Assembly: GCA_000004695.1 (NCBI GenBank)
Contig: CM000151.3
Coordinates: 4,288,001-4,352,000 of the forward strand
Reading direction: 5' to 3'
DNA from: Dictyostelium discoideum
Taxonomy: Eukaryota
Length of the DNA stretch: 64,000 bases
Within the stretch, counting starts at the first letter, position 1. Each line of letters starts with the position of its first letter. The notes beneath the pieces were generated by a model, which saw only the letters and a program-made list of their open reading frames with translations, did no database searches and was not told the origin of the DNA. The position numbers and the translations under genes were made by a program. Below, in pieces: positions 667 to 52,830 of the stretch.

Positions 667-757
<91 letters not shown>

Positions 758-4501: not shown

Positions 4502-5400
4502 ATGGCACATACAAATTTACCAGAAAAATTTCAAGTTGTAATTGAAAATGGTGAAAATATATTACAAAGAGTTTATAATACTTATAAATTATTTCAAAAT
4601 AATAAAGTGAAGCCATCATTTTTCAATGATGAAAAGATCTCAAAGATTTTAAAGAATTTGATAGCAAAGTATCCAGAATTACCAGAGAACAATGATAAAT
4701 CAATAACAGGATTCGATTTGTTGACATCACGTGCAAAACAACATTTAGAGGAGTTGGAGGATCATTATTACACAATCACCGATGCATACGATTGGAAAGA
4801 GGCATCATTCATTTTGATGCAAGAGATCTCCTCCAACACAGTGTCGATCAATTTCAACAACAACATTCAATTGTGCAGTAAATTTTTAGATGTACTCGTC
4901 CTATATGGTAAGATCAACTATTTGGTTTCATTGATCCCCGACAAAAAGATCATCACAGCCGTTTACGCCAAACTGTTCCTTTACACTCGTAGTGCATCAG
5001 AACCCACCTTTTCCAAGATGGGTCGTTGGATCAACGATATCGAACAACCCTTCAAAAAGATTCAAGAGGAGTTTCGTGTACTCAATGATGCTGTAGGTCA
5101 TGCACTCTCATCCTTTGAATTAACTTATGCCAAACGTCGTGTTATCACTCAACTTCGTAAAGATGGTGCCCTCAATCTCATCCTTAAACCTGAAGATATC
5201 GCTCGTCCAGTTCAAGATTCTTATCGTATTGAATTAGCTTACGCTGGTCGTATTCAACAATGGATCTTATTTGGTTATCTATTTGCTCCAGGTACATTAA
5301 GTACACCACAATCAATTGAATTACTTAGATTCACTTTATCTGAATGTTTTTATTTATCAGTTTTTAAAGATATTGTAAGTTTGTTTATTTATTTTTAATA

Positions 5401-23742: not shown

Positions 23743-23747
<5 letters not shown>

Positions 23748-26700
23748 TTAAATCAGTTTGACAAAGTGGACAATTACTTTTATGACTAGTTTGGAACCAT
23801 TTATAAATACAACCAGCATGAAATTTATTCTTACAAGTTTTACATTGGAATTTTGGAATTGTACCATTGTGAAACATTGAATAACAGATTGGACAAACTT
23901 CAACACCTTGGAAATGTTTATCTAAAGAATTTTTCCAAAGTAAACAAGCATCTAAAACAGTACCATCTTGAGTTAGCAATAAAGATGTCATTGATAATAA
24001 CCATTGTCTCCATTGTGATTCTGAAACACCAACTCTCTTTGAAAATTCTACAGTTAACACACGCAATGGATAATTATCAGAGATGAAGAGTACTAATGAA
24101 ATGGTCATTTCATCTTTTTCATAAGAGGCAGTAACCTCTTTACTTGAGGTTGAACCTTTAATTTGGAATTTAGCATCACTACTATCGCTATCAGTACAAC
24201 GATAAGAATTTACTCTTTGAATTTCATTTTGAATGATAATTGGACTAATGAAACGAGTGATATAACTTTGAATTTGTTGATTCATTTTAGAATTGGTTGA
24301 ATTATCATCAGCCCATCTACGTACCATACTTGGTAAATAATTAACCAATGAATAAAAACAATTTGAACATAATTTTTGAATCATTCTATAAGTAATTAAT
24401 TGATCATTATCAATAATTGAAAATGGAAATTCAATTGAATAATTATTACCATTATTATCGGTTGTTGTTGTTGTTGTTGTTAATGGTGATTCATCTTTAT
24501 TAATAAATGGGAATATTTGATTTAAGAACAATGTAACTTTTTGAATATTATTATCATTTAACCAACCATTTAAAATTGAACGTCTATTTAAATCAATCTT
24601 TGAATAATTTAATAATAATAAATTCCAACACATTAATTGACCCATTGAAATACTATTAATTAATTGATTATCTTTTGATTTCTTCATTGGTTTAAATGTT
24701 GAATCGAAATCTAATAAAATCTTTTCAAATATATTACTAAATAAAATAAAACTAACTTTTTCTTCACCATCATCGTTGTTGTTGTTGTTGTTGTTGTTTT
24801 CATTTTCTAATAAGAATGATTTCACTAATTGAGTATTTTCATTACCAAAATAAGATTCCAATAAATTGTAAGAAGTTTTCTTTATACCTTTATTATTATA
24901 AATACTTGTACTATAATTAAATGTTGATAATAATTCAATTAAATTATCTAATTTAGTTAATGATATCTTATATTTTATATCATTCGACATTTTCATAAAT
25001 GTATTTGAATATAATTCTAAAATATAACTTGAATCACTTGTATTACCATTATTATTATTACTTCTACTATTACTAACTCTATTTAACCAATTATTTAAAA
25101 TTAAAATTGAATGATCAATTTGAAATTGATCACCAATACCTGGTATTATAAATTTAATATTATCATTTGAAATTATAATATTATAAATTTTCAATGATTG
25201 ATATTCAATTAAATTACGATATTGTTGATAATAATAATTTGATTTAAATTTATTGAATGATAGTAATGTGAAATTATTTGATAACCAAATTGATAAAAAT
25301 GATTGAACAAATTGTGATTGGTTATTTGATAAATAAATTGGTTGTTTTGATTTATTCGAATTTATATTGGAAATGTATTGAATAACAATTAAAATGAAAT
25401 TCAAACAAGAGAGTTCAACCTCTTTCATAAATAAAAATTCAAGTTCAGGTTCTTGTTGTTTAATAATTGCACTTTTAATCTTTGAATTCCATTGTTGAAT
25501 AGTTTGAATTAAATTTAATAATGTTAACCATTCTTTTTCCTTTAATATTTCATTATCATCTTGTGTAATTTGTTGTTGTTCTTTTTGTGATTGTTGATGT
25601 TGTTGCTGTTGTCTTTGAATAACTATTGATGATAAAATTGATAATTGAATTGAAATGGATTTAAAATTTGTTGGAATTGAACTTGATAATTGACTTAATT
25701 GATTAATTGACCATTGTTTATAAGATTCAATTGATTCTTTTTGTAAAATTGGTAATAAAATTTGAACTAAATTCAATTGTCTAATTGAATCAATTGAATT
25801 ACCATTATCATCATTATCAATCTTTATTGAATTTAATAATGCTGATTTCAATTTCATTGATGATGTTGGTAAACAAGCATCACTTGTAATATAATCAATG
25901 AATAATGCCAATAGAACGGAATAAATACCACCATTATTACCATCACCACCAACATTTGATACTAAACAATTGAACCAATTACAATTGAAAATTTCGTCAC
26001 CATAAAATTTAAACAATGATTCAATAAATTGATTTAATAAATTTGTTGAATTATTTTCAATAAATTCTAAAATTTGTTCATTTGTTGACACTACTACTGC
26101 TGTTGTTATTGTAGTGGTGGTGGTGGTGGTTGTGGTTGGAGTTGGTGGTAATTGATTATCTCCATTAACGAATAATAAATTTAATAATAATAATTCAATG
26201 CTGTTATTATTTTCTTTATTAGAATATTTAATGAATTTTTCTAAACCAAACGATTCAATAACTTTAAAGTTAAAAATTAAAACCTTTAATAATTTATCAG
26301 TTGAGAAAGTGGTGCTATCGTTATTGTCTTTGTTGGAACCATAATTATCTAATAAATAAAATGGTGTAATTCTATTGTATCTAAACCAAGATATTTTAAT
26401 TTGATCTTTTGAATTGATTACTAATTGATTTGAAGTAAACTCTTTTATGAAATAAGAATACAATTGATCGTCGTCATCATCATCATCACCATTTTCATCA
26501 TGACGGTAGCTACCACTTTTAATTAATTTAATAGCACAATTTGATAAAAAATTTAAATTTAAATTATCATTTGTAATGATAGTACTACTATTTCTATCAA
26601 TGGATTCAATTAATAATGATAAAATGAATTTATCATTTTCAATGTTTGAAGTTGTTGAGAATAGATATTCATCAATTGAATTACATTTTGATTTAAAACC

Positions 26701-28863
26701 AGATAAACTTGGACGATTATTAATTTCAATATTAAATTTACACCATTCAATTAATAATGATTCTAATGATTTTGATTTAAATCTTGATGAAAATAATAAT
26801 TTTGATAATTCAACTAAATAATCAATTGAAACATCATTATCATCACTATCATCATCATTATTATTATCGCCGCCTTTATCATTATCATTAAATACTAAAT
26901 TTAATTGTACCATTGTATTTATAATATCAACCAATTTATTATAAACCCATTTAATTAATAATTCAACTGATTCATTTGGAATTATTGGTGAGAATTCATT
27001 ATTATTATTATTATTATTATTAAATAAAATTGATTTAATTAATTGTAATTGTTTTTTATCTTGAATTTTAATTGATTTAAATAATGTAGTTGATAATAAT
27101 AAATTTCTATTGATTTTATTACTTGCACTATTAATTAAATGAACTAAACTATTTGTTGTATTTGTAATTAAATTTGATCTATTATTTTTCTTTTTACTAT
27201 TATTATTATTATTATTAATTGAATCTAAAAATATTTGTAAAATTTGAGACCAAATTAATTTGATTTCATCTTCATCAGGAACTAAAGCTAACAATCCAAC
27301 TATAACTGAAACTAAATCTCCACCAACTCCTAAATTTAAACCACCTGTTGATAAAAGTGATTCATTTAATGCCAAAGCTAATTGAGTTATTATTTTTTTA
27401 ATATCATCTAAACCATTTGAAATGATTTGATCAATTTTATAATTTCCTAAAATAAAATCTAAAATTTTAATTGATAACTCTTGATTACTATTTAAATTAT
27501 CACATGCTAAATTAAATAGTCTTTTTATAATTACTTGAATAACATTATTATTATTACTATTATTACTATTGTTATTATTTGAACAAACAATTATAAATGT
27601 ATTTAATCTTGAAATTAAAGTTTCTTTTGAAATTGGTTGAATTATTTTCTCTTGTTTTTTAATTATTGGACTACTGTTATTATTATTATTATTATTATTA
27701 TCAGTAGTGATTGGTTCATTATTATTTAAAAGATTTTCTTTATTATTAAAATTTATAAAACTATTTGAATTAAATAAATTTTGAATTTTTAAAAGATTTG
27801 AATTTGATAAATTTGCAAGTTTAATTGTAGATTCTAATAATTTTTCAATGAATAATTTTTCAGAGAAACAAGAATGTTCCAAATTGAAATGATTATTATA
27901 AAAGTTAAATAATAATGTATCGATTAAGTAATCATTGATTTGTTGATATTGTTGACCCCATTTCTTACTCGAATAAATTAAACATTCCAAATAACATGAT
28001 AATAATAAATTGGAAGGTCTATCAACACTATTAGGATTACCATATTGTCTTGGATTATCAACAACTTCTAAACCCTTTTCTAAATTTGTGAATAACTCTT
28101 TAAAGAAACCGATATCAATATTTGTATTTGGTGATGGTGATGGTGATGGTGATGGCGATCCAATTACAATTGAATTTGGAATAAAAGTTAATAATGGCAA
28201 AATTGAAGGATAGGATAATTCAAAAGAACCATAACAACCAGATCTGAGGAATGCCCATAATCTTGGTAATACATGTTTACGAACATCAACATTACTCCAT
28301 GCTTTGTCACCATATTGCTGTAAGAATGATATTATGGCATCCCACATATAAAGATGAGTTGATGAATCTTTCTCTGAAAATAATCCTAAAACTTTACTAC
28401 TAAAATCTTTGAAATTCTTTTCGACATATCCTGCTAACTTTTTAATAACAGTTGTCAATACTCTATATGCTGTCTTTCTAATATTTGAACTCTTTGATTG
28501 AAAAAATGAAAAAAATTGTGATTCAAATATTTTTTCATAAATTTCTGTATTACCTGTATTATTTGTAGTTGTCGTTGTTGTAGTTGTTGATGATGATGAT
28601 GATGAATCAGTTGCTGTTGCTGTTGTATTATTAATTAAATACTCAATTGCTAATAATGAGTTTGAAATACATCTTTCATATCTCTCTTGTAAGATTTCTT
28701 GGCTAATTGATTTACTATCACCAATAGTTTGTGGTGTCTCTTGTAAATTCTCACATAAATAAGTTAATGCTTCATCATGTCCAAATTTAAAAACATCTTT
28801 TCTTTTCTTTTCTGGGAATATATTCTATATATATAAATATTAAAAATAAGTATGTATACAATA

Positions 28864-28906
<43 letters not shown>

Positions 28907-29597
28907 ATACTTGAAATGATAATAAAGCATTATTTATTGATTGATCATTTTGATCACAAATTGCAACAATCCAAGGACCTAATAATTGTTTAACATGTGG
29001 TCCTAAATGTTTACCAATACGTGAACCAATTGAACCTAAACATTGACTTGCTAAATCTCTAACATTTCTATCATCATCATTAACCAATCTCTTATACATA
29101 AACTCCCATGCATTCATTAATGGTGATATTGATGAAATGTTAAATTCTGCATCTTCAATATTTATCTTTTGAAATTTAGAATTTAATTCTTCTAAACCTT
29201 TAATTCTACTAATACTATCTTTTTTTTGTAATTTCTTTAATAATACCTTATATTCTGGTTCAACTTGCTATATTAATAGTGAATTATTTATTTTTATTAT
29301 TATTTTATTATTAATTATTAATTATTGTATATAATTTTAAAGATAGTTAATATTTTAAATAAAAAAATAAAAAAAAATAAAAAAAAATAAAAAAATTAGA
29401 TTAAAATAAAAGAAAATAAAAAAAAAATTAAAAAATCTTACATAATAGTCAGGATCAGTTGCATTTGTAAGATTTGAACTAAATGCTGAAAAACCAATAA
29501 ACCCACTAGATTGAGATCCCATTAAAGTATTGGCCTCACCACTACTTGATGGGTTATATTTTGCACCTCTAAATCCTTTATCTCTATCTTTTCCCAT
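23743..29597 (-). CDS. ltn1: Listerin / Ltn1 E3 ubiquitin ligase (ribosome quality control). complement(join(23743..28824, 28911..29267, 29451..29597)), about 1861 aa.
   Basis: The C-terminal RING-H2 is [46 protein letters not shown], matching the listerin RING signature (CPICYS...C.TCKNKFH..CLYKWF...S.CPLC). Exon 1 ([39 protein letters not shown]) and exon 2 (...[21 protein letters not shown]...[40 protein letters not shown]) match the conserved listerin N-terminus. Donors are GTAAGA and GTATGT and acceptors are tatag; all exons are phase 0. Confidence 0.9.
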
Positions 29598-29720: not shown

Positions 29721-29923
29721 AAATTGGGAAGTGGCTAAGAATATTTTTTAAACACTTTTTGCCATAATTTTGATATTTTCCCAATTAAATATCCATTTTA
29801 AATAAAAAAAATAAATAAATAAAATAATAAAAATAAAAAAAAAATAAAAAAAATTTAGAGGTCTAATATAAAAAAATAAAAAAAATGCGATTTTTTAGGA
29901 GGGGGGGGGGTATTTATACAATT

Positions 29924-30258
29924 TTATTTTGGTGGAAGAGTACCCAAACCATCGACACCAACATTAATATTGACGCCATTATTAATATTACTATTATTAT
30001 TTATATTATTATTTATATTATTATTTATATTATTATTTATATTATTATAAAAATTATTATTAAAAGACCAATCTGTTGTTGGGTCAAAACTCCAAATATT
30101 ATTTGTTTTTGGTGGTGGATCGCCAATCATCGTTTCCAAAAAGTCTGTAAATGGGCCATTTGTGTTCATTAAACCATTATTACTTTCAGTCATTGAACTA
30201 CTTCCAATATTATTATTATTATTGTTTTTAATATTATTATTATTAATATTATTATTAA

Positions 30259-30326
<68 letters not shown>

Positions 30327-31805
30327 GTAAATGATGCCGGTATTAAATATGTATTATCTATACCATTATATAAAATATTATCGCTATTATTTTCAATGTT
30401 ATTATTGGTGCTATTATTATTGTTGTTGTTGTTATTATTATTACTATTTACTATTGTATCAAAATTGGTATTTCTATTATCTAAATCTAATTTTACATTA
30501 AAATCACTTAACTGAGTTGATGGTGTAGCAACATCTCCTGTTGTTGAAGAGGTTGTGGTGTTGTTGTTGGTGATTGGTGTTAAACTATTATTATTATTGG
30601 TAGTAGTGGTGGTGGTGGTGGTAGTTGGTATTAAAATATTATTATTAATATTATTACTATTTGGAGTATTTGGAGAAATTATTGGAGTTATTGGTGTTAT
30701 TGGTGTTGGTGTTGGTGTTGGTGGTTGTTCAACAATACGTTCACTATTTGAATGTTTTTGAATTATCATTTGATAATCATCTGGAGAACCAGGTGGTGAT
30801 TCATCCATTGGTGATATGAAACTTGATGTTTTTGATCTATTAATTAATCTATTATTGATTGGATGATTCGATGATATTAAAGCACCACTATTTAAGCTAT
30901 CAGTACTAACATTTGAAGAAACATTAACATTGTTTATAATTGGATAATCATTACTCAATAATCTAATTGTAACCAAATCACAAATTGCTCTAGTATTATC
31001 TGAATCGCTAATAATTGTATGTGTATCTATAGTACTAAAAATTGAACCATCACGATGTTTATAAACTTGTGCCAACTCAAATGATTTCTTTTCTGATAAG
31101 TCTAATCTATGTTGTTGAAATAAATTCATTGTTTTTTCAATTAAATTCGGATGTGTAATTTCTGTCCATGGTTTACCAATTAACTCATTCTAATTAAAAA
31201 ATAAAAAATTAATATTTATTTATTTATTTATTTATTTATTTATATTTGTAACATGGGGTAAAATGAAATTTATATATATTTATATTTATTTATATTTATA
31301 TATATTTATATTTATTTATATTTATTTATATTTATTTATATTTATATACTTACTTGAGAATAACCTAATAATTCACAAAAACTATTTGAACAATTTATAA
31401 CGATTGGTGGTAATTTTAAAAGATCAACAACCATGAAAACATTTTGAAAGTAATCTGATGAGTCTGTTGATTGGTGGTGATGATGATGATGATGAAGATG
31501 TTTTGATTGTTGATTTCTTGGATAAGATAAGGAACTATCATTTGTATTAATATCAGATGAGTGATGAGCAAATTTCGATTGAAGTAATTGTTGTTGTTGT
31601 TGTTGTTGTTGTGAAGATGGTGTAATGTGTTCATTTGTTGTTAGCATACTTAATTTCGCCAATAATGTCTCATTAACAATTTCTAATTTTTCATTTCTAT
31701 TTCTTAAATTTACTAATTCTTCATATATCTTTTTTTGTCCATCTTTTAATTCCCTTAATTCACTAATTAATAAATTTGCAATACCATTCTAAAAAATAAA
31801 TAAAA

Positions 31806-31854
<49 letters not shown>

Positions 31855-32460
31855 TTAATAAACAAATAAATAAAATCTAAAATTTAAAATATATATTATA
31901 ATTAAAAAAAAAAAAAAAAAAAAAAAAATACATACTTGGTCGGATTTTACTATATCTGATGGATTATTACTGTTATTATTATTATTATTATTATTATTAA
32001 TATTACTGCTATTATTACTATTATTGTTGTTGTTGTTGTTGTTATTATTATTATTATTGCCGATGTTGCTATTGTTATTATTATTACTACTGCTGTTGCT
32101 ACTGCCTGTGTTATTATTGTTATTGTTGTTATTGTTGCTGCCAATACTACCGCTATTATTGCTATTGCTATTGTTATTGTTGCTGCTGCTGCTGCTGCTG
32201 TTATTGTTATTATTATTATTTGAAGGACGGGGTTGTGAATTATTTGGTAACTTTATATTGGAATTTGATATATTTGGTCTGATAGAGTTATTATTAAATG
32301 GATATGACGGAGTTGTTCTATTTGAGCTATAACACATTTGAGGAACACCCTTTATAATACATCTTGAACAAGGTGTTTTCTCATCACATTCGACCATATC
32401 TTTTTGACAAAGAAAACATGATTTCTCTGATGTTTTTCTTTTTCTTGGATGTAAATCCAT
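29924..32460 (-). CDS. Putative transcription factor with Zn(II)2Cys6 binuclear-cluster, coiled-coil and PAS domains. complement(join(29924..31189, 31354..31788, 31936..32460)), about 741 aa.
   Basis: Exon A starts MDLHPRKRKTSEKSCFLCQKDMVECDEKTPCSRCIIKGVPQMC, with spacing C-x2-C-x6-C-x5-C-x2-C-x8-C (the Gal4-type pattern), followed by poly-N/S. Exon B has a heptad-like stretch LISELRELKDGQKKIYEELVNLRNRNEKLEIVNETLLAKLSML, a His-rich tract, then the start of a PAS fold (VVDLLKLPPIVINCSNSFCELLGYSQ) continuing in exon C (NELIGKPWTEITHPNLIEKTMNLFQQHRLDLSEKKSFELAQVYKHRDGSIFSTIDTHTIISDSDNTRAICDLVTI). Donors are GTATGT and GTAAGT and acceptors are ttttag / ttaattag; all phase 0. Confidence 0.6.
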
Positions 32461-32827: not shown

Positions 32828-34705
32828 TTAATTATTAATTGGTAAATAACCAGCACGTTTCTTATAACGAATATAACCATATGCTCCACCAGCAACAGTA
32901 CCCAAGACAGCAACGATAATTAAGAAAACAGCCCAACCTGGTAATTTCTTATGAGATTGTTCTTTTGAATTAAATTTAATTGAGACAATACCATCATCAG
33001 AGACGGAAACAGAGTAATCTAAAGTGGTGGCTTGACCATTTGTAAGTGGAACGATGGTTGAGAAAGTACCAAGAGTGCTACCAGCACATGAGATGATTTT
33101 ATAGGAATCACCATCACTTGGATTGGTATCGGTGATATCCATGATAAGGGTACCATTGAGTACTAAATTACCGTCGACAGTGATAAGAGCGCCAGCATCG
33201 GTAGAGAGTGTCTCTGCGATGAAAATGGTGGATTCAGCATCCATTTCCAAGTTACCAGCAACAGCGAATTGTTCAGAGGTTTGATCCATATCCAAAACGG
33301 CACCACTTGTCATAATTAAATCACCATTGATAGTAGCGATGGATTGTGGATGAATTCTACCGGCGATCAAATCAACTGAGCCACCAATGATACCACTATC
33401 AATACCAATGTATGAGTCTTTATCCAATGTATCGATTGAACCAAAAAAATTGACTTGATTGAATGCAAGATTACCTAAAAGATTAATTGGATATTTTCGA
33501 ACCCAAGAATCGAATGGACCATTCAAAGTGTTCATTGAGGCATCACTGAAAACGATTTGAGTGAGATTGGTGGAGATGTAACCCAATGAATTGCCACCAT
33601 CAAATTGAACGCTTGGAGTTGGTTGATGGTCTGGATTGATTACAAATGATGATTGTTTATCAGTTAAATGACCAAATGTACAATTTTGAACAAATAGATT
33701 CAAACCACCTGCAACAGTTACACTAATACCCACTGAATTAACATTCCATAAATAACATTCGGATTCAACATTACCTTGCTTGTTGATGTCAAATGTGATT
33801 TGACCATTACCTTGGACACCATTTGCGAAGTTTCCTTTTGGATGGAAACAAATTAAGTTGGCATTTTGTAAGTTAATGCTTGGGAAGTTTGCTGATGCTG
33901 AACCAGAGATGGTGAGATTAGCATTGGTGACCTTGATACTTGGATTACCAGTGTATTTGAATGAATCTGCAATGGTAAGAGCACCACCTTGAACGATGAT
34001 ATCATCATTGAGTGTGACAATCTCCAAATTGGATTGACCATAGAATGTGGTTGGACCAACAATGACTCTATCGTCGGAATTGATACCTGCATTGAAGAAA
34101 CATTCGTTGGCAGTTAAAATTGAATTATCAGTGAATGTTACAGTGGTCCAAAATTGAGCGACACCATTGATTAAAACATTTGAGAATGATTGTGCAGAGA
34201 ATTGGGAGTTTTGATCAGTGAAAATATCTTTAAATTGAAGAATTGAATAGGATGCTTGCATTGTGGATCCGAAAAGTAAGAATTTACCATTAACCTCAAC
34301 ATCATAACCAAATTGAGTGATATTGTTACTCTTTTCATTGTCAAATACAATTGTTGCACTATTGTTACCTGTGAACCCACCTGTCACTTGCATGTTGGTG
34401 TTTTGGAATGATACTACAACATTGACTGCACTTGTACCAACGATATTAATACTTGTGAATATGTTATTGATACCAGAAGCTACAATGAAAACTTGTTTAT
34501 TAGCGTTGGTAACCTTGGTGAAATCAATTACAACATTACTATTATTACTTGGAACTGCTCCTTGTTGCCAATTTGTTGGATCTGTGAATCTACATGGATT
34601 TTCTTGTGCACCACATAATGTTGGATCAAATGCAAAATTAAATGTTTGTGCTGAAATAATTCCAATAAAACAAATTAAAACTAATAATAATTTTATAATA
34701 TTCAT
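32828..34705 (-). CDS. Type I membrane glycoprotein of unknown function, 625 aa: signal peptide, large N/T/S/G/V-rich beta-rich ectodomain, single C-terminal TM, short basic cytoplasmic tail.
   Basis: A complete ORF. The N-terminal MNIIKLLLVLICFIGIISAQT is a likely signal peptide. There are many N-x-S/T sequons. The C-terminal WAVFLIIVAVLGTVAGGAYGYI is a TM segment followed by RYKKRAGYLPINN. No recognised catalytic motif. Confidence 0.6.
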   Translation of the reverse strand: MNIIKLLLVLICFIGIISAQTFNFAFDPTLCGAQENPCRFTDPTNWQQGAVPSNNSNVVIDFTKVTNANKQVFIVASGINNIFTSINIVGTSAVNVVVSFQNTNMQVTGGFTGNNSATIVFDNEKSNNITQFGYDVEVNGKFLLFGSTMQASYSILQFKDIFTDQNSQFSAQSFSNVLINGVAQFWTTVTFTDNSILTANECFFNAGINSDDRVIVGPTTFYGQSNLEIVTLNDDIIVQGGALTIADSFKYTGNPSIKVTNANLTISGSASANFPSINLQNANLICFHPKGNFANGVQGNGQITFDINKQGNVESECYLWNVNSVGISVTVAGGLNLFVQNCTFGHLTDKQSSFVINPDHQPTPSVQFDGGNSLGYISTNLTQIVFSDASMNTLNGPFDSWVRKYPINLLGNLAFNQVNFFGSIDTLDKDSYIGIDSGIIGGSVDLIAGRIHPQSIATINGDLIMTSGAVLDMDQTSEQFAVAGNLEMDAESTIFIAETLSTDAGALITVDGNLVLNGTLIMDITDTNPSDGDSYKIISCAGSTLGTFSTIVPLTNGQATTLDYSVSVSDDGIVSIKFNSKEQSHKKLPGWAVFLIIVAVLGTVAGGAYGYIRYKKRAGYLPINN

Positions 34706-37934: not shown

Positions 37935-40900
37935 GTAATAATAATACTTTATGTGTATCTACAAGTGGTGGAAGTAGTCATCAAGATATTAATAAAATTG
38001 ATCCAAGACAACAACATTCAATTTTACATAAGATTGGATTTAGATTAGTAGATTTTGATTATACAAAACTACCATTAAAGAGATTAGGTAAATCAAATAA
38101 TCTCCTATTGACAGTTTATCTTTCGCCACATATACCATCACAAAGTAGTTTAGATGGTGATAAATATTATTTACCATCAGTATTATTAAAGAATTTCGTA
38201 TATGACCTTTGGGATACATCTTATTTGACAGAAAAAGTTAATAGAAAACCAGATGAAGATCCAGAATATGGAAGAGCATTGGAACAAATCGAATTACGTG
38301 AAAAGATACCATTGTTAGATTTACCATGGGGTGCAGGTAAACCATGGACATTAGTTGACCTCTATGAGGATTATGATGAAGAATTATTGGAACGTTGTTA
38401 TAGAGAAGTCATGGTACCAAGTGTGAAACATAGTGAAATTCCTTCACTTGGTAACGTTTTAAGGGCAATGTCTCCCGAGGGTGATGATTCATCCTATCTA
38501 CCAGATGTTCATGTCCTTTTAGCAGTACGTTGGCCAACTGATTTCCATAAGGATGGCAATTCATCATCGCCAATCATCGATGGTCTTTGTGTTTTCGAAT
38601 ATCATACCGAACAAAATTGTGGAATACTCACTCATTTAATTTTACAAAAAAAGAATAGAACATCATTGAATGATGGTTTGGATAGTTTATTAGTGGATAG
38701 TGCCGTAGATATCCTTGATACCAATGCAAGAGAACGTGGTAATTTGGCAGGTTGTAATGCAATTTTCATTCATATTAAAAATGCCCCAACTTCACCAGTT
38801 AGTCCAGATGTTGTTGATATTTGTCAACATCATATGGTATTATATAAAATGGGATTCAAACTTTTAGACTTTGATTTCTATATACCACCATTGGATTTTC
38901 ATTCAGCACCAAAGAAAATGATGTTAGGTTTATTCATTACACCATTGATCCCAAAATCAAATGAAAAAGGTGATCGTCCATTCATTCCATCAAATCTATT
39001 GAAATTATTTGTTGAACTTCAATGGAATAATGCTTTTGGTTCAGAACAAATTAAGAATTCACCAAATACCTACTTGGAATATCAACGTATGATTGAACAA
39101 ATAGAATTACGTGAACGTATTTCATTATCGGATTTACCATGGGATGCAGGTAAACCATGGACATTGGTTGATCTATGGGAAGATTATGATCAAGAGTTAT
39201 TGGAACGTCTATACAAAGAGATTATGATACCAAACTTTTCAAATAAACACGAATTGGAACCATTGGATAATTGGTTACAAGCATTTACTTCAGAGAATCG
39301 TGATGATCCAAACATTTCCGATCTTCATATACTATTGGCACTTAGATGGAGCGATAATAGTTCACAACCAATCATTGAGGGTGTTATCATCTTTGAATAT
39401 TTCTCTGCAAATAATTGTGGTCTATTAACTTATTTAATCGTTCAAAAAACATTTAAAGGTAAAGGTTTGGATAGAATCCTCGTGGAAACAGCAATTGAAA
39501 TCCTAAATCAAAATGCAAAGAGTCAAGGTTTCCTTCCAGGTTGTAATGCAATCTTTTTGGAGGTTTACAGTGGTGAAAAGGTAACTTTGAAACAAGATGT
39601 AGTCGATCCACGTATGAGACATTCCATCTATCATCAAATTGGATTTAGATTGATAGATTTCGAATATGTTGCACCACCATTAGCTTTGACTTATCCAAAG
39701 TTAAAACATTTCCTTCTCACAGTTTATCTTACCGAACATATTCCAAAGATGCCATTGGAGGAGGGCAAATATTATTTACCAAGTAGCGTTTTAAAGAATT
39801 TTATCACCGTCCTTTGGAAGAATGCAATTGCAACCAAGAAAATCATTAAACAACCACAAAGAGATTCAGATTATGTTAGAATGGTCGAACAGTTTGAGTA
39901 TCGTGAAAAAATACCATTGTTAGATTTACCATGGGGTGCAAGTAAACCATGGACATTGGTTGATCTTAGAGACGATTATGATGAGGATCTTATGGTACGT
40001 TTTTACAATGAGTTGATGTTACCAAATTTCCCAGTGAAAAATGAATTGGAACCATTATCAAATTTCATTAGTGCTCTCTCTGAAGAGAGAAGAGAATCAT
40101 TCAATCCACATTTATCAGAGGTTCATGTTTTATTGGCATTGAGATGGCCAACCGATTCATCCGATTTACAACCAACCATTGGTGCTGGTATTATTTTCGA
40201 ATATTTTTCAAATACCAATTGTGGTTTACTTTCCTATTTGGTGGTACATCGTTCTTCAAGAGGTCAAGGTTTGGCTGGTATTTTGGTTGAACGTGCAGTG
40301 GAACTATTGGATAAACATGCAAAAACTCGTGGTCAATTGGCTGGTTGTAACTGTATTTTCTTGGAAACCAATTCTGCTGAAAAAGTAACCGTACAACAAG
40401 ATGTTATGGATCCACGTATGAGACATACTATCTATTATAAAATGGGTTTCAGAATGATCGATTTCGAATATATTATGCCACCACTTTTTCAAGGTTTTGA
40501 AAAATTACGTGGTGTACTCTTATTGACAGTTTATTTAACTCCTCATATTCCCTATCAAGATGTCAATGGCAAGAAACAATACTATCTACCAAATGTTTTA
40601 TTAAAGAATTTCATCTCTTCACAATGGGAGAATGCATTCCGTAATTCACGTCTCTCTGTTAGACCAAGTCAAGATATCGATTTCACAATGTCATTGGATC
40701 AATTGGAGATTAGAGAACGTGTACCACTATTGGATTTACCATGGGGTGATGGTAAAGATTGGATGATAGTTGACCTTTGGGAAGATTATGATCAAGAGTT
40801 ATTGGATGCTTTCTATAAAAAGTATATGATCACTCAGTTTGGTACTTCCGATGAATTAGAACCATTAGAGAATTGGCATAAAGCTCTCTCAACCGAGGGT

Positions 40901-42064
40901 CGTGATGATCCTAATATTTGCGATCTTCATGTCCTATTAACATTGGGTTTGCCAGGTGAACATAAAGGTAAAGGTCATAAATATATCATTGGTGGTTTGG
41001 TTTTCGAATATTATCCAGAGACAAATACAGCATTGGTCACTTACTTGGTTGTAAATCAACGTTGGTCCGGTAAAGGTATTGGTACTGACTTAATTTTACG
41101 TACTCTCACAATTCTCGATCAAAATGCAAAACAAAAAGGTCATATAGCCGGTTGTAATGCAATTTTCTTGGAAGTTATGTTCTTACCACAATCGGGTGAA
41201 TCAGACTCTTCATTGAGTCATGTTTTCCTTTTCAATAAAGGTTTCCGTTTATTGGATTTCGAATATTATCAACCACCAACCTCTTTAAGAAATCCAAAAT
41301 CAAATAATGTTTGTTTAACCGTTCTATTGACTCCACGTATTCCAAAGCATGGTGTTGGTAGTGAAATTCAACCATTTGTACCATCTTCTTTGTTACGTTC
41401 ATTCATTACAACTCTATGGGAAGATGAATGTGGTTTAATTGGTTATAACTTTGAATCTGATCCATGTTACCTTAGAATGATGGAACAATTGGATGGTAAT
41501 GATTATTTCCATTGTTTAGATTTACCTTGGATTAAACATAGAATCGATCAAAATTCAATCAATCCAAATAATTCCACTCTACCACATATAAACTTTTCAA
41601 ATTCTTTTAATAATTTAAATATTAGTTATTCATCACCAAATCCTGTACATTTAAGAGATTTTAAAAATCAACAACAACAACAACAACAACAACAAGTACA
41701 ACAATTACAACAACAAGTACAAAAAGTACAACAATTGACAGCTGGTACTAATTTAGGTGGTAATAGTTTAAATTCAAGTGGTAGTATTTATAATAATAGC
41801 GGCGATAAAAAATCATCACTACCACCATTACCAAATCCAAATAACCTTAGTAATAATTATGATAGTGATCATCTTACAAAGAATAAAAATTTATTAAAAG
41901 TTTCAACACCAGATGGCAATAGTTCCTCTGCTCCTGGTTCACCAATTTTATCTCCTCAATCAATGAATTCAGTTTTCCCACCAAACGCTCCTTTATCACC
42001 TGCTCTTTATCCTTCAAATTTAAGTAATTCAACATTGGCCCAAAGAGTTACATTGGATAAATAA
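36545..42064 (+). CDS. Giant protein with 5 complete plus 1 partial tandem GNAT-fold (acyl-CoA N-acyltransferase-like) modules. join(36545..36579, 36702..37557, 37652..42064), 1767 aa.
   Basis: ORFs 36841-37674 and 38108-42064 are joined by a GTAAGT...tttttag intron (phase 0), and a short first exon MSSTPNNNNNNK joins via aa|gtaagt...aaatag|g. Each module of about 260 aa carries DLPWG(A/D)GKPWTLVDL(W/Y)EDYD(E/Q)ELLER, then EPL.NW, DPNI.DLH(I/V)LLALRW, IIEGxIIFEY(F/Y)...NCGLLTYL(I/V)V, then an R/Q-x-x-G-x-G/A motif-A region (SRGQGLAGILVERAVELL; SGKGIGTDLILRTL), then GCNAIFLE...DPRMRH.IY.KMGFR.IDFEY..PPL and LLTVYL.PHIP. This matches GNAT beta4-alpha3 (motif A), motif B (Y.K.GF) and the terminal beta strands. 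There are long S/T/P-rich and poly-N (37846-37930) insertions in module 0 and a Q/N/S-rich C-terminal tail. Confidence 0.7.
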
Positions 42065-44351: not shown

Positions 44352-45848
44352 TTATAATTCAACAAATCCAATATTTGATGGCTTTGATTCTATACCATTA
44401 TAACTTGTAACAACAATACTATATTTTCCATAAGGTATATTAAACATTTTTGTTATGAATTCTGAATTAATTGATCGTTTAATTTTATATCTTAACCATG
44501 TATTATCTGATCTACTGATATAAACAAAGTATTTGATTTTTTGATTACTTTTTTCACTTTTAAAGGAATTTGATTTAAAAGTGATTGATACATCCATATT
44601 AAAATAATATTGTTTTTCAATTGTACAATTGATAATTTGAGGTGGTAATAATTGTTCAAGTTGATTGGTAAATGATAAATTATAAGTTAAGGAGTAATTT
44701 CCATAATCAAGATTATGGTTTTCAACAATAATATAAACATGTTTACCATTTGCTGTCATTCTTAATTGCCTATTATCATTTGATCTATCAATAATAGTGG
44801 TTAAACTTTGACCATATCTAATATTACAACTTCTCATTGAACTATATTTATAATAATTATAAGCTTTTCTTGATTCTAATAAACATATTGAATAGGTGAA
44901 TGGCATAACTCTATTAGCTATTGGATTTATTGACATTGTAATTTCCGTATTACCCTTAACATCACAAGAATATTGATGATATTGATTAAAATTATTATTA
45001 TTAAAACCATTATCTTTTTTAAAATTACAATAATTATTACAAGGTGAATAATCATCATTTCTTAAAAATTCTAAATATGAGTCTAAAAAGTGTAATTGGT
45101 TTATTGATTTAATTTTTTCAATATTATTTTTCAAATAAATTGTATTGTTAATTGAATGTTTAAAAATTGTATTTGAAACGTATGGGTCTGTTATTCTAAT
45201 AGTATCATTATAATATGAATTTACATATCTACGGTAGGTAAATTTATTTATGTTTTGTTTAACATAATCTAAAAATTTATCATCACCAATTGCAGGTTGG
45301 CCAAATGTTACACATGTAATTGATTTTATATATTTTTCATTAAAACGTTGAATTGAGATATCTAAAGTTGCAAAAAATGCAATTACACCGCCAACTGAAT
45401 GACCAGTAAAATAGATATCATAGGGTTTCTCACATGAATCAATAATGCTATATAATTGAATATATAAATCATAATATTCACCTTGAAAACCATTACGAAC
45501 TTCACCACATCCTTTTGGATCAATATAACAATCAACTTTGAAATAATGGGCATTATCTTCGATATTAATTGAATTGTATTCTTTAAATGAAATTATTAAA
45601 TTATTGGTAATGGATGATTTATATGCTAAAATCTTAGAATTATCCAATACAACCTCCCATTCCAAACAATTGTTTTTATCACCTAAAGAAATAAATTGAT
45701 TTTGTTTAACTGCTAATGGATCATATATTAAATCTGAAAAGTATGCAAAAATATAATCTCCATTTTTACCAATTATTGAACTATTTGATCTTTTAAGATT
45801 TATTAATAAATTTATTATCAATATAAAAACTATTGTTTTAAAAAACAT
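44352..45848 (-). CDS. Secreted class-3 (fungal-type) lipase-like protein with C-terminal Cys-rich region and FN3-like domain, tandem paralog 1 (498 aa).
   Basis: Signal peptide MFFKTIVFILIINLLINL. The Lipase_3 nucleophile elbow is YFTGHSVGGVIAFFATL (GHSxG), followed by CVTFGQPAIGD. The C-terminal tail is YSIVVTSYNGIESKPSNIGFVEL. Intronless. Confidence 0.8.
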   Translation of the reverse strand: MFFKTIVFILIINLLINLKRSNSSIIGKNGDYIFAYFSDLIYDPLAVKQNQFISLGDKNNCLEWEVVLDNSKILAYKSSITNNLIISFKEYNSINIEDNAHYFKVDCYIDPKGCGEVRNGFQGEYYDLYIQLYSIIDSCEKPYDIYFTGHSVGGVIAFFATLDISIQRFNEKYIKSITCVTFGQPAIGDDKFLDYVKQNINKFTYRRYVNSYYNDTIRITDPYVSNTIFKHSINNTIYLKNNIEKIKSINQLHFLDSYLEFLRNDDYSPCNNYCNFKKDNGFNNNNFNQYHQYSCDVKGNTEITMSINPIANRVMPFTYSICLLESRKAYNYYKYSSMRSCNIRYGQSLTTIIDRSNDNRQLRMTANGKHVYIIVENHNLDYGNYSLTYNLSFTNQLEQLLPPQIINCTIEKQYYFNMDVSITFKSNSFKSEKSNQKIKYFVYISRSDNTWLRYKIKRSINSEFITKMFNIPYGKYSIVVTSYNGIESKPSNIGFVEL

Positions 45849-46241: not shown

Positions 46242-47810
46242 TTATTTCAGAGTATTTATAAATGCAATATTGGAGGGTGAAGATTGGATATCATTATATT
46301 CTGAAAAAACAACTATACTATATGCTCCTTTTGGGATATCATCTATAGTTTTTGAAAAGTAATTATTATTTTGGTGTGGTCGAATAATTGTCTCTTTATA
46401 TTTTTTCCAGTTTTGCCCAATATTACTAATGAATATATTATATATTGTATTATTAAAATTGTTGTTATTATTATTATGATCTAAATCATTGATACTAAAA
46501 TTAACTTGTAATTTAATAAGATCGTTTTTTATTTCTAAAATATCAGCTGTTAAATTTGTTGGTGGATTTGGAGTTTGATATGGGCTCTTTATTGAAATAT
46601 TATAAGAAAATGAGGATGTCCCTAAAATTGAGTTATGGTTTTCAACTACAACAATAATTTCATTTAAATTTTTAATTCTTTTTGAAACTGATCTAAAATG
46701 TTCTGTCTTATCTACCATTGTTATTGGTTGTTTATAATCTTTATAGTAATTTAAATTACAACTACTAAATAATGTAAAATCATAGTGTTTAAATTGATTC
46801 CTTGATGTAAATAAACATACAGAGTATTTATCAGGTAGAATACCTTTTGGATTAAATTCACCATTGAAAATACATTCATTTTTAACCATACAATGATATT
46901 CTTTAAATTTTGAAAATTTTGCATTCTTTTCAACAAATTTACAATTAGTATTACATTGTGAATAATTTGGATTAAATGTATTTAATAGGTAAAGATCTGA
47001 TGAATGTAAACCCAATGGAAAATTGGGACAACTGTGTTTTTTACAATTTAAAACAATTATTGATTCATCTGCGACCTTTGGATGATAAACATTAAATATT
47101 GACATTATTTCAACAACAGGATCTTCATGATACTTTTTAAAATCAGATGAACGATGTTTATGATTATTAATATTAACGTATCTTCTATAATTTATTTTTT
47201 TAATTGATGATAAAAACAATTTATTAAATTGTTCATCTCCTACTGCAGGCTGACCAAATGTTATACAATTAATAGATTCAATGTTTTTTAAATCATTTTG
47301 ATAAGAATAATATACTGAAGCTAATAATGCAACAGCACCACCAGCCGAATGACCAGTAAAATAAATATCATATGGTTGGTCTAATGATTTTATTATTGAT
47401 AACATTGTATTTTGATTAAAATAAAATTGATCTTGAAAACCAAAATGAATTTTACCACATTCAATATTCCATGGTTTTAATAAAAAACAAGAAATTAATT
47501 TTAAATCAATATCAGATGCAAAATCTTTAAAATAATGAGTTCCTTGAATTGAAATAACCAAGTTATTCGTATATTTTGATTTAAAAATCATCATTTTATT
47601 TTCATTTACAATTATTTCCCATTCTTCACATTCACCATTAATTTTTATTAATTCAAATTTTGAAAATTCTTTATTATTTGTTTTATATACTAAATTTGAA
47701 AAGTAAGCAAATATATGATCTCCATCTTTATTTATTTTTGAAGATAAAATTAAATTTATAAAAATTAATTTAAATAATATAATTATTAAAAATTTTATTT
47801 TAAAAAACAT
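46242..47810 (-). CDS. Secreted class-3 lipase-like protein, tandem paralog 2 (522 aa).
   Basis: Signal peptide. YFTGHSAGGAVALLASV, CITFGQPAVGDEQF, and a C-terminal FN3-like YSIVVFSEYNDIQSSPSNIAFI. Confidence 0.8.
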   Translation of the reverse strand: MFFKIKFLIIILFKLIFINLILSSKINKDGDHIFAYFSNLVYKTNNKEFSKFELIKINGECEEWEIIVNENKMMIFKSKYTNNLVISIQGTHYFKDFASDIDLKLISCFLLKPWNIECGKIHFGFQDQFYFNQNTMLSIIKSLDQPYDIYFTGHSAGGAVALLASVYYSYQNDLKNIESINCITFGQPAVGDEQFNKLFLSSIKKINYRRYVNINNHKHRSSDFKKYHEDPVVEIMSIFNVYHPKVADESIIVLNCKKHSCPNFPLGLHSSDLYLLNTFNPNYSQCNTNCKFVEKNAKFSKFKEYHCMVKNECIFNGEFNPKGILPDKYSVCLFTSRNQFKHYDFTLFSSCNLNYYKDYKQPITMVDKTEHFRSVSKRIKNLNEIIVVVENHNSILGTSSFSYNISIKSPYQTPNPPTNLTADILEIKNDLIKLQVNFSINDLDHNNNNNNFNNTIYNIFISNIGQNWKKYKETIIRPHQNNNYFSKTIDDIPKGAYSIVVFSEYNDIQSSPSNIAFINTLK

Positions 47811-48030: not shown

Positions 48031-49566
48031 TCAAATTATTTTATTTTTATTATCTAATCCATTAACAAAACAATAATTAGAAGTTTTGGATTCTATTCCA
48101 TTATCACTTGTAGATACAATACTATAAAGACCATCTTTTTTAAGATTTTTTATAATTTCATTTAATTCTATTTTTGATAATGGTTCAACAAATTCATATT
48201 TAATCCAATCTTTTCCAATTTCACTTAAATAAATATTATATTTCATTGTTGGTTGAATTAATGAAATAGTATTATTTGATTTGAATGAAACTGAAATATC
48301 CATTGAATTTTCATTTGTTGAAATTATTTTACATGTTAAATTATTTGGTGGTTGTGGTACTTGAATTGTACTAATGAATGAAATATTGAAAGCAAGAGTT
48401 GAAGTTGAAAAGAATAAATTATGATTCTCTACAATTATAAATAAATCAGAACCAGAAACAGTCATTTCAAACTCCATTGCATTTGTTGTTTTATCAATTA
48501 AAATATTAGATTTACCACCACAAATATTATTTTGACTATATTCATATTTATTAAAATCATCTTTATTTGTAAAAATACAAACTGAATATTTATCAGTGAA
48601 AAAACCAGAACCTGGATAAAAGTGACCTTTAATTGTCGATTCTGAAGATGATGGACAATGATAAACTTGTTTTTTTGTAATTTTTGGATTTTGGAATAAA
48701 AAATTACAATTTGAATTACATTTTGAATATTTATCATTATAAAGTTTATCTTTATAAAGATCCAAGAAATGTAAACCTAAAGAGTAATTTGGACAATCAT
48801 TATTACAATCTAATAGAATTGGACTATTATTTGGATGTGGTACCGATAAGAAATTCACTACTGGATCTTCAATGGTTTTATTATTATTTAATTGTGCAAT
48901 ATTATTAATATTAATATAACGACGATACTGAAATTTATCTAATTTTAAATTTGCAAATTTATTAAATTCAAAATCACCAATTGAAGGTTGTCCAAAAGTT
49001 ATACAATTAATAGAATGAATTATATTGAGATCTTTATGATTTGTAACATAATCCAATGATGCTAATAATGCAGTTGAACCACCTAATGAATGACCAGTGA
49101 AATAAATATCATATTGTTGATCTAATTTTTTAATTGTTGATAAAAGTAATAAACTAATTTCATTATATTTCTCTTGAAATCCATTACGAATCTTTCCACA
49201 ACCGCCACCTCTACCACTACCACCACCACCCCATAAATCATTATTTACTATTAAATTACAATTTGAATATTTGATATCTAAATCAGCTTTTATATCTTCA
49301 ATACTGCTTGTACCTTTGAATGAAACCACAACAGTATTACTAAATTTTGATTTCCAAATATCCATTCCACTACTATCAATTATAATTTCCCATTCCATAC
49401 ATTTCTCATTCAATTGTAAATATTCATTTCCTGTTATCGGTCCATAAACTGTATCTGAAAAATATGCAAATAAAAAATCACCTTCTTTTTTAATTATTGA
49501 ACAATTTATAATTGCAAGTATAATTAAATTTATAAATAATAATAAAGTTATTTTAAAATTTAACAT
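48031..49566 (-). CDS. Secreted class-3 lipase-like protein, tandem paralog 3 (511 aa).
   Basis: Signal peptide. YFTGHSLGGSTALLASL, CITFGQPSIGDFEF, and a Gly-rich insertion WGGGGSGRGGGCGK before the lipase core. C-terminal YSIVSTSDNGIESKTSNYCFV. Confidence 0.8.
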   Translation of the reverse strand: MLNFKITLLLFINLIILAIINCSIIKKEGDFLFAYFSDTVYGPITGNEYLQLNEKCMEWEIIIDSSGMDIWKSKFSNTVVVSFKGTSSIEDIKADLDIKYSNCNLIVNNDLWGGGGSGRGGGCGKIRNGFQEKYNEISLLLLSTIKKLDQQYDIYFTGHSLGGSTALLASLDYVTNHKDLNIIHSINCITFGQPSIGDFEFNKFANLKLDKFQYRRYININNIAQLNNNKTIEDPVVNFLSVPHPNNSPILLDCNNDCPNYSLGLHFLDLYKDKLYNDKYSKCNSNCNFLFQNPKITKKQVYHCPSSSESTIKGHFYPGSGFFTDKYSVCIFTNKDDFNKYEYSQNNICGGKSNILIDKTTNAMEFEMTVSGSDLFIIVENHNLFFSTSTLAFNISFISTIQVPQPPNNLTCKIISTNENSMDISVSFKSNNTISLIQPTMKYNIYLSEIGKDWIKYEFVEPLSKIELNEIIKNLKKDGLYSIVSTSDNGIESKTSNYCFVNGLDNKNKII

Positions 49567-51291: not shown

Positions 51292-52830
51292 TTAAATTAA
51301 TGTTGAATTACCAAAAATGTAAGCAAAATTAGAAGCATGTGATTCAGCTCCATTGTCAGCAGTAACAACAATACTATAAATTCCATTCATCGGAATGTTT
51401 AAAAATTTTGAAACAAATTTAGTTGTTGCAGATTCAATGAATTCAAACTTTGACCATTCTTTACCAATTTCACTTAAATAAACCCTATATATAATTAAAT
51501 TATATAAACTATAAATGTGTTGTGGTAATTGGTGATAGTTAAAAGAGACCATAATACCAATTGTATCATTTTTTAAAGATGACACAGTACAAGATAAATT
51601 TGTTGGTGGTGAAGGTGCAGTAATTGAATTTGTAAATGTGATATTATAAGAGAATGACGAAGTTGCGAATAAATTATTACGATTTTCAACAACCACATAT
51701 AACTCTTTGCCTTGTAATACCTTTTTTTCAAACATAGTTCTATTTGATGTTTTTTTAATTATAATTGAAGTTGCATTTGAATTTGTACCTGATTTCAAAT
51801 TACAATCAGTTGATTGTTTATATTCATATTGATCGAAATCTTGAGCTGAAGTGAATAGACACACAGAATATTTATCAGGCATGATACCTTGTGGATTGAA
51901 TGATCCCTTGATTAAAGACTCCTTATTTATTGGACATTTGTAGGACTGATATTTATAAATATTTGCATTGGATTCTTCAAATTTACAATTTGAACTACAT
52001 TCCGAATAATGTTGATTAAAAACATTACCCAAATATAAATCCATGAAATGTAAACCCAGTGGTACCATTGGACACCTGGTTTTTAAGCAGTCCAACATGA
52101 TGGCATTGGTTGGGTGTGAGAATATTGAATTTGGGATGGGATCTTCTTGAGGTGATAGACCGAGTATGGCCGTTTTACTATTATAATTTACATAACGACG
52201 GTATTGGAATCTTTGGGAGTAAAACATCAAACTGTTGGAAAACTGCTCATCGCCCACAGCCGGTTGACCAAAAGTAACACAGTGGATTGATTTAATGTAT
52301 TTTTGTTTTTGTCTTTGATTCACTGTATAATCATAGGCGGCAATCAATGCCAATGCACCGCCTAGTGAATGACCGGTGAAATAGATATCATATGGTTGAT
52401 CTAGTGATTTAATAATTGATAAGAGGATATCATAAGTTTCGTAATACTCTTGTTGAAATCCATAATGAAGTTTACCACATCCACTTGTAATATTACATGT
52501 TGTTGGTACAATTTTAATATCTGTAATAATATCTGAAAATCCTTGTGTACCTCTAAAAGAAACTATTAAATTATTACTAAATTTCGATTGAAATATCATA
52601 ATTCTACTATGATCTAATATTATTTTCCACTCCATACATTCTCCATTTAATGAAATGTATTTATATTGTTCACTATTGGTATTTGTTGATTTTGGCATAT
52701 AAACAATATCTGATAATAATCCAAATAAATAATCACCATCTTCTTTTATAATTGTTCCATTATTAAAATCTATTAGATAATTTAAAATTAATAAAAATAT
52801 AAATAAAATAATTTTAATTTTAAAAATCAT
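51292..52830 (-). CDS. Secreted class-3 lipase-like protein, tandem paralog 4 (512 aa).
   Basis: Signal peptide. YFTGHSLGGALALIAAY, CVTFGQPAVGDEQF, and a C-terminal YSIVVTADNGAESHASNFAYIFG. Confidence 0.8.
   Translation of the reverse strand: MIFKIKIILFIFLLILNYLIDFNNGTIIKEDGDYLFGLLSDIVYMPKSTNTNSEQYKYISLNGECMEWKIILDHSRIMIFQSKFSNNLIVSFRGTQGFSDIITDIKIVPTTCNITSGCGKLHYGFQQEYYETYDILLSIIKSLDQPYDIYFTGHSLGGALALIAAYDYTVNQRQKQKYIKSIHCVTFGQPAVGDEQFSNSLMFYSQRFQYRRYVNYNSKTAILGLSPQEDPIPNSIFSHPTNAIMLDCLKTRCPMVPLGLHFMDLYLGNVFNQHYSECSSNCKFEESNANIYKYQSYKCPINKESLIKGSFNPQGIMPDKYSVCLFTSAQDFDQYEYKQSTDCNLKSGTNSNATSIIIKKTSNRTMFEKKVLQGKELYVVVENRNNLFATSSFSYNITFTNSITAPSPPTNLSCTVSSLKNDTIGIMVSFNYHQLPQHIYSLYNLIIYRVYLSEIGKEWSKFEFIESATTKFVSKFLNIPMNGIYSIVVTADNGAESHASNFAYIFGNSTLI

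Follow-up and report, generated by a model that had tools for sequence, protein, structure and literature searches.

Gene structure and encoded modules

A 64,000-nucleotide stretch of the Dictyostelium discoideum genome (GenBank assembly GCA_000004695.1, contig CM000151.3, positions 4,288,001 to 4,352,000), here called the window, carries at 29924..32460 of its minus strand a gene for a protein in which a Zn(II)2Cys6 binuclear zinc cluster, a long coiled-coil helix, and a PAS domain follow one another. Judged by its sequence, the gene belongs to a conserved Zn2Cys6–coiled-coil–PAS_3 family whose named members, all amoebozoan, span four lineages of that group, and it probably encodes a dimeric, signal-modulated, modular transcription factor. 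Coordinates below are those of the window, and all features of this gene lie on the minus strand. An earlier note on this DNA had described a transcription-factor-like gene combining these elements; all of them are in place, on the minus strand, as a spliced 741-aa open reading frame (ORF).

Splice assembly and translation give a coding region of three exons and two introns (741 codons plus a TAA stop at 29924-29926). Exon 1 (31936..32460) encodes residues 1-175, comprising a basic patch, the zinc cluster, and an Asn/Ser-rich low-complexity linker, and is followed by intron 1 (31789..31935; 147 nt; GTATGT...TTAG), which is 97% A+T. Exon 2 (31354..31788) encodes residues 176-320, which take in the coiled-coil helix, a linker rich in Gln and His, and the initial third of the PAS domain; intron 2 (31190..31353; 164 nt; GTAAGT...TTAG) splits the PAS domain, and exon 3 (29924..31189) includes the stop codon. 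Splicing at the GT..AG boundaries keeps the reading frame, with junctions that read ...IVKSDQ / NGIANLL... (exons 1 and 2) and ...LLGYSQ / NELIGKPW... (exons 2 and 3). The N-terminus (MDLHPRKRKTSEK), both junctions, and the order of the blocks are colinear with the Dictyostelium purpureum protein XP_003283391 (53% overall identity, E 9e-121; P0001, the sole match from that species in the homologue search described below); thus, the gene model is sound. The window has a G+C content of 22%, with strongly AT-rich introns and with Asn-rich repeats in its coding sequences, features also seen in group-4 dictyostelids. A run of ten G on the plus strand (C10 on the gene strand) lies at 29901-29910, 14-23 nt 3' of the stop codon of the factor; such G/C runs are otherwise almost absent from the window, and this one may be a 3' untranslated region element or mere slippage.

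The zinc cluster occupies residues 15-43 (32332..32418; CFLCQKDMVECDEKTPCSRCIIKGVPQMC), and a basic patch, P-RKRK at residues 5-9 (32434..32448), lies directly N-terminal to it. The cysteine spacing is exact (C15-x2-C18-x6-C25-x5-C31-x2-C34-x8-C43), bearing out the earlier description of a C-x2-C-x6-C-x5-C-x2-C-x8-C signature preceded by basic residues. Tested as C-x2-C-x6-C-x5-12-C-x2-C-x6-8-C against the six-frame translation of the whole window, the Zn2Cys6 pattern has no other match outside repeats, and when the first 60 residues were shuffled 200,000 times it arose twice. All six cysteines, together with Pro30 before the fourth of them (P28 in the trimmed alignment), are invariant across 17 family members. 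The shuffle test and this conservation rule out a chance spacing of cysteines in low-complexity sequence. Against solved structures, a profile built from the family cluster matches Hap1 (4.7e-7), Pho7 (2.2e-6), Cep3 (4.3e-6), and Put3 (5.5e-4), followed by Lac9, Ppr1, and Gal4; two weak matches in the PDB are to cysteine-rich peptides (E 0.1-0.7), and all remaining ones are to Zn2Cys6 proteins. In the AlphaFold2 (AF2) model, residues 11-44 have a predicted local distance difference test (pLDDT) score of 89-95 and form short helices at 16-20 and 32-36, as expected after the CxxC pairs. The KRK of the basic patch is kept in the dictyostelid orthologues, and basic residues occupy this position in many further members and in the fungal ERT1 proteins; the patch is a putative nuclear localisation signal and/or contact to the DNA backbone.

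The coiled coil covers residues 176-225 (31639..31788), identified from the AF2 model, its heptads, and its conservation, and the helix itself begins one residue earlier, at 175, which exon 1 encodes with its final codon. AF2 predicts a single helix of about 50 residues (175-225; pLDDT 90-95) in which heptad positions a and d are for the most part L, I, or V, in agreement with the heptad-repeat stretch noticed earlier in the middle exon. Across the family, this block has the signature xxLxELxxxKxxQxxxxxExxxLRxxNxxL. On the model, the helix would mediate dimerisation.

The PAS domain (residues ~290-400) is encoded in two parts: an N-terminal part of residues 290-320 (31354..31446; Pfam PAS_3, PAS_9, and PAS; AF2 strands 293-297 and 304-308 and helix 310-316), and a C-terminal part of residues 321-400 (30950..31189; Pfam PAS_3, AF2, and Foldseek). 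Pfam PAS_3 (PF08447) matches with 45.2-51.7 bits against a cut-off of 25.6, and AF2 gives a five-stranded PAS fold with a pLDDT of 90-97. A Foldseek comparison of this model with the PDB returned 518 matches at E<=0.001 with PAS/LOV domains on top, confirming the PAS fold proposed in the earlier note; the best matches are LOV, aureochrome, phototropin, and hERG PAS domains (E about 1e-8; target-normalised TM-score 0.65-0.8). By sequence, the closest solved PAS domain is the cofactor-free eag-PAS of hERG (E 3e-4). Little or no variation is seen within the family at G317, W328, H333, Y363, G368, D375, H377, and D391. The polar subset of these residues (W328, H333, Y363, D375, H377, and D391; window about 30977-31168, minus strand) matches no known cofactor motif, and from its conservation it may form a ligand or metal site.

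Between these three confidently modeled modules, AF2 predicts disorder (pLDDT <50 for residues 49-170), and the inter-module segments are Asn/Ser-, Gln-, and His-rich. The PAS domain is followed by about 340 low-complexity residues and then by an acidic-hydrophobic motif at residues 665-696 (30062..30157; GPFTDFLETMIGD...IWSFDPTTDWSF), which reads TDFLETMIGD...IWSFDPTTDW. A comparable motif, rich in D/E and containing bulky hydrophobic side chains, is found close to the C-terminal end of most family proteins (such as DDEELYRILT, DEELFQLIMD, and DDVYNWILNDDD). It has the character typical of acidic activation domains and is a putative transactivation motif.

An amoebozoan family and its genomic setting

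An exhaustive HMMER search over 1.84 billion representative sequences returned 1,719 matches at E<=0.001, 127 at E<=1e-10, and 3 below 1e-30. Many of the best 150 matches are long multi-PAS proteins that align through the PAS domain only. At least 17 representatives among these 150 have cysteines spaced exactly as in the window protein, together with the coiled-coil block and a PAS domain of this subtype, and are counted as family members. Wherever a species name is attached, the member is amoebozoan; the others come from metagenome or read-archive assemblies. The named members belong to the Dictyostelia (D. purpureum, Acytostelium subglobosum, and Heterostelium album), the Discosea (Dermamoeba algensis and Stenamoeba stenopodia), the Tubulinea (Vermamoeba vermiformis), and the Archamoebae (Pelomyxa schiedti and Mastigella eilhardi, with two copies in the latter). 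The search of other dictyostelid genomes suggested by the earlier note thus finds family members there. Because a cluster–coiled-coil–PAS factor is conserved in all four lineages, both the zinc-cluster domain and its pairing with a PAS domain are old and stable in Amoebozoa. Linkers vary widely across the family: 22-168 residues separate the cluster from the coiled coil, and 14-235 the coiled coil from the PAS domain; in the Archamoebae, the first of these linkers is short (about 23 residues) and near the fungal norm.

A word-indexed homologue search with the coiled-coil and PAS segment gave nothing useful, and the family profile gave one weak PAS match there. This search missed all dictyostelid and other amoebozoan relatives, even those included in the query alignment, and the exhaustive search recovered them. 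Negatives from the word-indexed search are unreliable for low-complexity eukaryotic proteins.

The gene is already catalogued and, as a genome feature, otherwise ordinary. In Dictyostelia, 'Gal4-like' proteins are a recognised family of five (Forbes et al., 2019; PMC6873476), in which the orthogroup DDB_G0274877/DPU_G0073094/DLA_08797/PPL_03999/DFA_04331 is tabulated as Gal4-like and counted among three 'deeply conserved' Gal4-domain genes (PMC6873476). The Heterostelium protein PPL_03999 is the fourth-ranked match of our search (P0004; E 4.9e-24) and has the same modules; this places the window gene in the orthogroup, and from its sequence it is most probably DDB_G0274877 itself. Expression of the orthogroup is constitutive in development, shows no cell-type preference, and is up in cysts (PMC6873476). 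We decoded the expression table against its header, and the same decoding reproduces the published prestalk/stalk call for DDB_G0291348. The text of that study is confined in scope to Dictyostelia and mentions neither the PAS domain nor the coiled coil. In the searchable literature, DDB_G0274877 was not found in the main text of any paper, and literature searches pairing Zn_clus with Amoebozoa, or looking for a locus identifier of the neighbouring Nap1 gene, were likewise empty. In UniRef, the D. purpureum orthologue is named only "PAS domain-containing protein", and its stored Pfam hits are to PAS_3, without Zn_clus. In the public model of PPL_03999 (1154 aa), the zinc-cluster factor is fused at its N-terminal side to a multi-pass membrane protein (named in UniRef as a DUF5009 domain protein), and the middle of the PAS domain is missing (...LLGYSK followed by HGTVYHSLDNHT...); the probable cause is a wrongly predicted fusion in which an exon was skipped.

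The order membrane protein, factor, listerin is kept in D. purpureum, where XP_003283391 lies between orthologues of both flanking genes. Downstream of the factor, a listerin (Ltn1) homologue (23743-29597, minus strand) encodes the LTN1 HEAT region, a UBC-like domain, and a C-terminal RING (Pfam); its first exon begins at 29597, 326 bp from the stop codon of the factor and on the same strand, close to the 330 bp or so estimated earlier. Upstream, a 625-aa ORF (32828-34705, minus strand) has a signal-peptide-like N-terminus, a C-terminal transmembrane segment, and no Pfam match, and is orthologous to the 630-aa membrane-protein gene upstream of the D. purpureum factor (L001 6970-8862; 28% identity, E 1e-50). 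Four tandem paralogues with Lipase_3 matches (44352-45848, 46242-47810, 48031-49566, and 51292-52830, all on the minus strand; E 1e-16 to 1e-24) represent a local expansion of the class-3 lipase family. On the plus strand, ORFs at 4502-5398 and 6044-8245 match Pfam Nckap1 at positions 3-292 and 422-1118 (E 3e-94 and 4e-212) and look like exons of one gene for Nap1/Nck-associated protein 1 of the SCAR/WAVE complex. The window also has two unremarkable neighbours, a 1318-aa ORF with a central GNAT acetyltransferase domain (38108-42064, plus strand) and a 226-aa ORF with an RRM domain (272-952, minus strand).

Candidate function and competing readings

A transcription factor, as the earlier note had proposed, is judged the best reading of the gene, and all three domain calls behind that proposal were right. 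In the mechanism we propose, the basic patch would import the factor into the nucleus; the coiled coil, and probably also the PAS domain, would join two chains; and the two zinc clusters of the dimer, carried on long flexible linkers, would bind paired DNA half-sites. The PAS domain would couple a signal or a partner to the geometry or activity of the dimer, and the acidic C-terminal motif would recruit the transcription machinery.

Several observations weigh against this reading. The Pfam Zn_clus model (PF00172) scores below its 21-bit cut-off, with 15.5 bits for the full protein, 20.5 bits (E 5e-4) for the isolated N-terminus, and 17.7 bits for a core construct. The profile check of both domains that the earlier note had called for is therefore divided: the PAS_3 score lies above its cut-off and that of Zn_clus just under it, yet the family profile matches Hap1. 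Zn_clus is matched at E<=0.01 by 9 of the 17 family members (best 2.3e-5), and some relatives clear the cut-off, such as P0005 with 22.3 bits. Because of the family conservation and the matches of the family profile, the Zn2Cys6 assignment stands despite the sub-threshold score. A second point concerns the recognition helix (C18-Q-K-D-M-V-E-C25), which holds two acidic residues and has Met22 at position +4 after the second cysteine, the position of Lys18 in Gal4 and Lys71 in Hap1. That lysine contacts CGG bases in Gal4 and Hap1. Within the family, the +4 position is variable (M, N, H, A, G, K, or R), and only the lysine at +2 (Lys20) is nearly invariant. Because Met22 replaces the base-contacting lysine and the helix contains two acidic residues, the DNA specificity may depart from the canonical CGG triplet. 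The linker between cluster and coiled coil is also long, at 137 residues, most of them an Asn/Ser low-complexity expansion, as against roughly 10-20 in Gal4-type factors. The PAS domain sequence contains no ligand or cofactor signature that we could find, and the ligand- or redox-sensing role suggested earlier is speculation. Finally, the published data for the orthogroup are expression data only, and no phenotype is reported in that study (PMC6873476).

A zinc cluster is paired with a PAS domain in the fungal regulators ERT1, AcuK, AcuM, Rds2, Aod2, Aod5, and Pas2, which govern gluconeogenesis, alternative oxidase, and hypoxic adaptation (PMC12719309). PAS-dependent function is established for AcuK, AcuM, and Pas2: point mutations or deletions in the fungal PAS domain impair or abolish function, and an interaction with partners has been proposed (PMC12719309). 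The window gene might then be the amoebozoan orthologue of ERT1/AcuK/AcuM/Rds2, with a Zn2Cys6–PAS architecture already present in an ancestor that Amoebozoa share with fungi, and with a role in carbon and respiratory switching (gluconeogenesis, alternative oxidase, and hypoxia), although we consider this rather unlikely. The order of the domains is identical in both groups, with a basic patch, a cluster of the same x2,x6,x5,x2,x8 spacing, and a single PAS domain C-terminal to it, and the clusters share K/R at +2 after the second cysteine, a CD/CE motif, and an (R)PC motif. Our fungal comparisons used database sequences of the Ert1 family (cluster P0160 is Saccharomyces cerevisiae Ert1). Aligned by hhalign, the amoebozoan and fungal cluster profiles match with a probability of 97.4-98.2% (E 1.5e-11 to 4.5e-14). 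The alignment spans 47 columns, basic patch included, at 36% identity. The increase of the DDB_G0274877 orthogroup in cysts, a starvation or stress state, also fits such a role.

The similarity of the clusters to ERT1 is, however, only marginally stronger than that to Hap1, a member of another zinc-cluster subfamily and the best-matching solved domain: scored with the amoebozoan cluster profile, clusters of the ERT1 family reach 32-42 bits, at or above the 33.5 bits of Hap1. To our knowledge, the PDB holds no ERT1/AcuK structure. The PAS domains are not specifically related. Fungal ERT1-family proteins have the Pfam architecture Zn_clus plus PAS_13 (PF24990, 'ERT1/acuK family PAS domain'), whereas the amoebozoan family has PAS_3 (the window protein also matches PAS_9). 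PF24990 scores 103 bits in S. cerevisiae Ert1 and 121 bits in a Rhizopus protein, and is unmatched at E<=10 by the PAS domain of the window protein and those of two other amoebozoan members, which rules out membership of the ERT1/acuK PAS family. Between the two PAS profiles, hhalign gives a probability of 7.5% over 22 columns. The PAS motif reported for the fungal proteins, G-x-I-x3-N-x7-G (PMC12719309), is not found exactly: the corresponding segment of the window protein (PPIVINCSNSFCELLG) has N-x6-G and is without the leading Gly. Nor do the flanking regions correspond, in that the conserved, helical pre-PAS block of the fungal proteins (FRPSFIA...QRTLLEY) has no counterpart in the amoebozoan family by profile alignment, and the amoebozoan coiled-coil block none in any region of fungal ERT1 (hhalign probability <1%), so that specific kinship of the coiled-coil block is likewise ruled out. 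The two architectures may share an origin or may have arisen through independent domain shuffling. Descent of both families from one ancient metabolic or stress-sensing factor, with the Zn2Cys6–PAS pairing already present in the ancestor of Amoebozoa and Opisthokonta, appears unlikely. If it were true, the Zn2Cys6–PAS architecture would not be a fungal invention, and the conserved polar PAS pocket would let the Dictyostelium protein govern genes linked to starvation or respiration (gluconeogenesis, alternative oxidase, and encystation).

The substitutions in the recognition helix also bear on a different proposal, namely that the cluster has lost DNA binding and serves instead as a zinc module for structure or protein interaction, the protein being a signaling or scaffold protein of the PAS/coiled-coil type. 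Methionine in place of the base-contacting lysine, the two acidic helix residues, the variability of the +4 position in the family, and the sub-threshold Zn_clus score would all be compatible with such a loss. We nevertheless regard it as most improbable: the six cysteines, the proline, Lys20, and the basic patch beside the cluster have been kept in deeply diverged amoebozoan lineages, and the acidic, activation-like motif at the C-terminus is conserved as well. Furthermore, ERT1-type clusters are also without lysine at the +4 position, where they have histidine, yet the ERT1/AcuK proteins act at a CCG-containing promoter element (PMC12719309).

In flavin-binding LOV domains, the cysteine that forms the flavin adduct sits in the motif GxNCRFLQG. 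An aureochrome-like blue-light receptor (a DNA-binding domain, a coiled coil, and a flavin-binding LOV-type PAS domain) is almost certainly the wrong reading and is rejected as a LOV photoreceptor, because GxNCRFLQG is replaced by GKPWTEITHP in the window protein, so that the photoactive cysteine and the flavin-contacting N, R, and Q are missing; the LOV domains of aureochrome and phototropin are the best structural matches and the topology is similar, but identity to LOV structures is only 15-20% and the nearest domains by sequence are the cofactor-free ones of hERG/eag.

Comparison with known regulators

The transcription factor that we favor resembles Gal4, Hap1, Put3, and Ppr1 in its six-cysteine signature, the proline before the fourth cysteine, the two short helices of the cluster, and a coiled coil C-terminal to it. 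It differs from them in Met22, in the length of the linker (137 residues, and 22-168 across the family), and in the presence of a PAS domain. A Pfam scan of the protein did not detect the fungal 'middle homology' domain. With aureochromes, it shares the arrangement of a DNA-binding domain, a coiled coil, and a C-terminal PAS domain, although the DNA-binding domain is a bZIP there and a zinc cluster here, and the flavin-binding motif is missing. The likeness to hERG/eag is limited to the PAS domain, and the channel context is absent.

Zn2Cys6 factors are still routinely called fungus-specific, for example as antifungal targets (PMC12719309). The gene described here bears on that label. Its product is a probable regulator from a model lineage that is open to genetics, and it could show what a non-fungal zinc-cluster factor binds and regulates, and whether the fungal link of PAS–zinc-cluster proteins to carbon and respiratory metabolism reaches beyond fungi. 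The earlier note had called a Zn2Cys6–PAS combination outside fungi unusual. That rarity was overstated, because the Gal4-like set had been catalogued in Dictyostelia (PMC6873476) and the pairing of Zn2Cys6 with PAS is well known and well studied in fungi (PMC12719309).

In outline, the protein resembles an ERT1/AcuK-type factor, but by its sequence it falls outside that family, as the absence of a PF24990 match indicates. The two types also end differently: the PAS domain closes the protein in ERT1/AcuK, whereas the Dictyostelium factor continues through its low-complexity tail (~340 residues) to the acidic motif. What is new here, as far as sequence comparison can define it, is the conserved Zn2Cys6–coiled-coil–PAS_3 family in four amoebozoan lineages, set apart from ERT1/AcuK by its PAS subtype.

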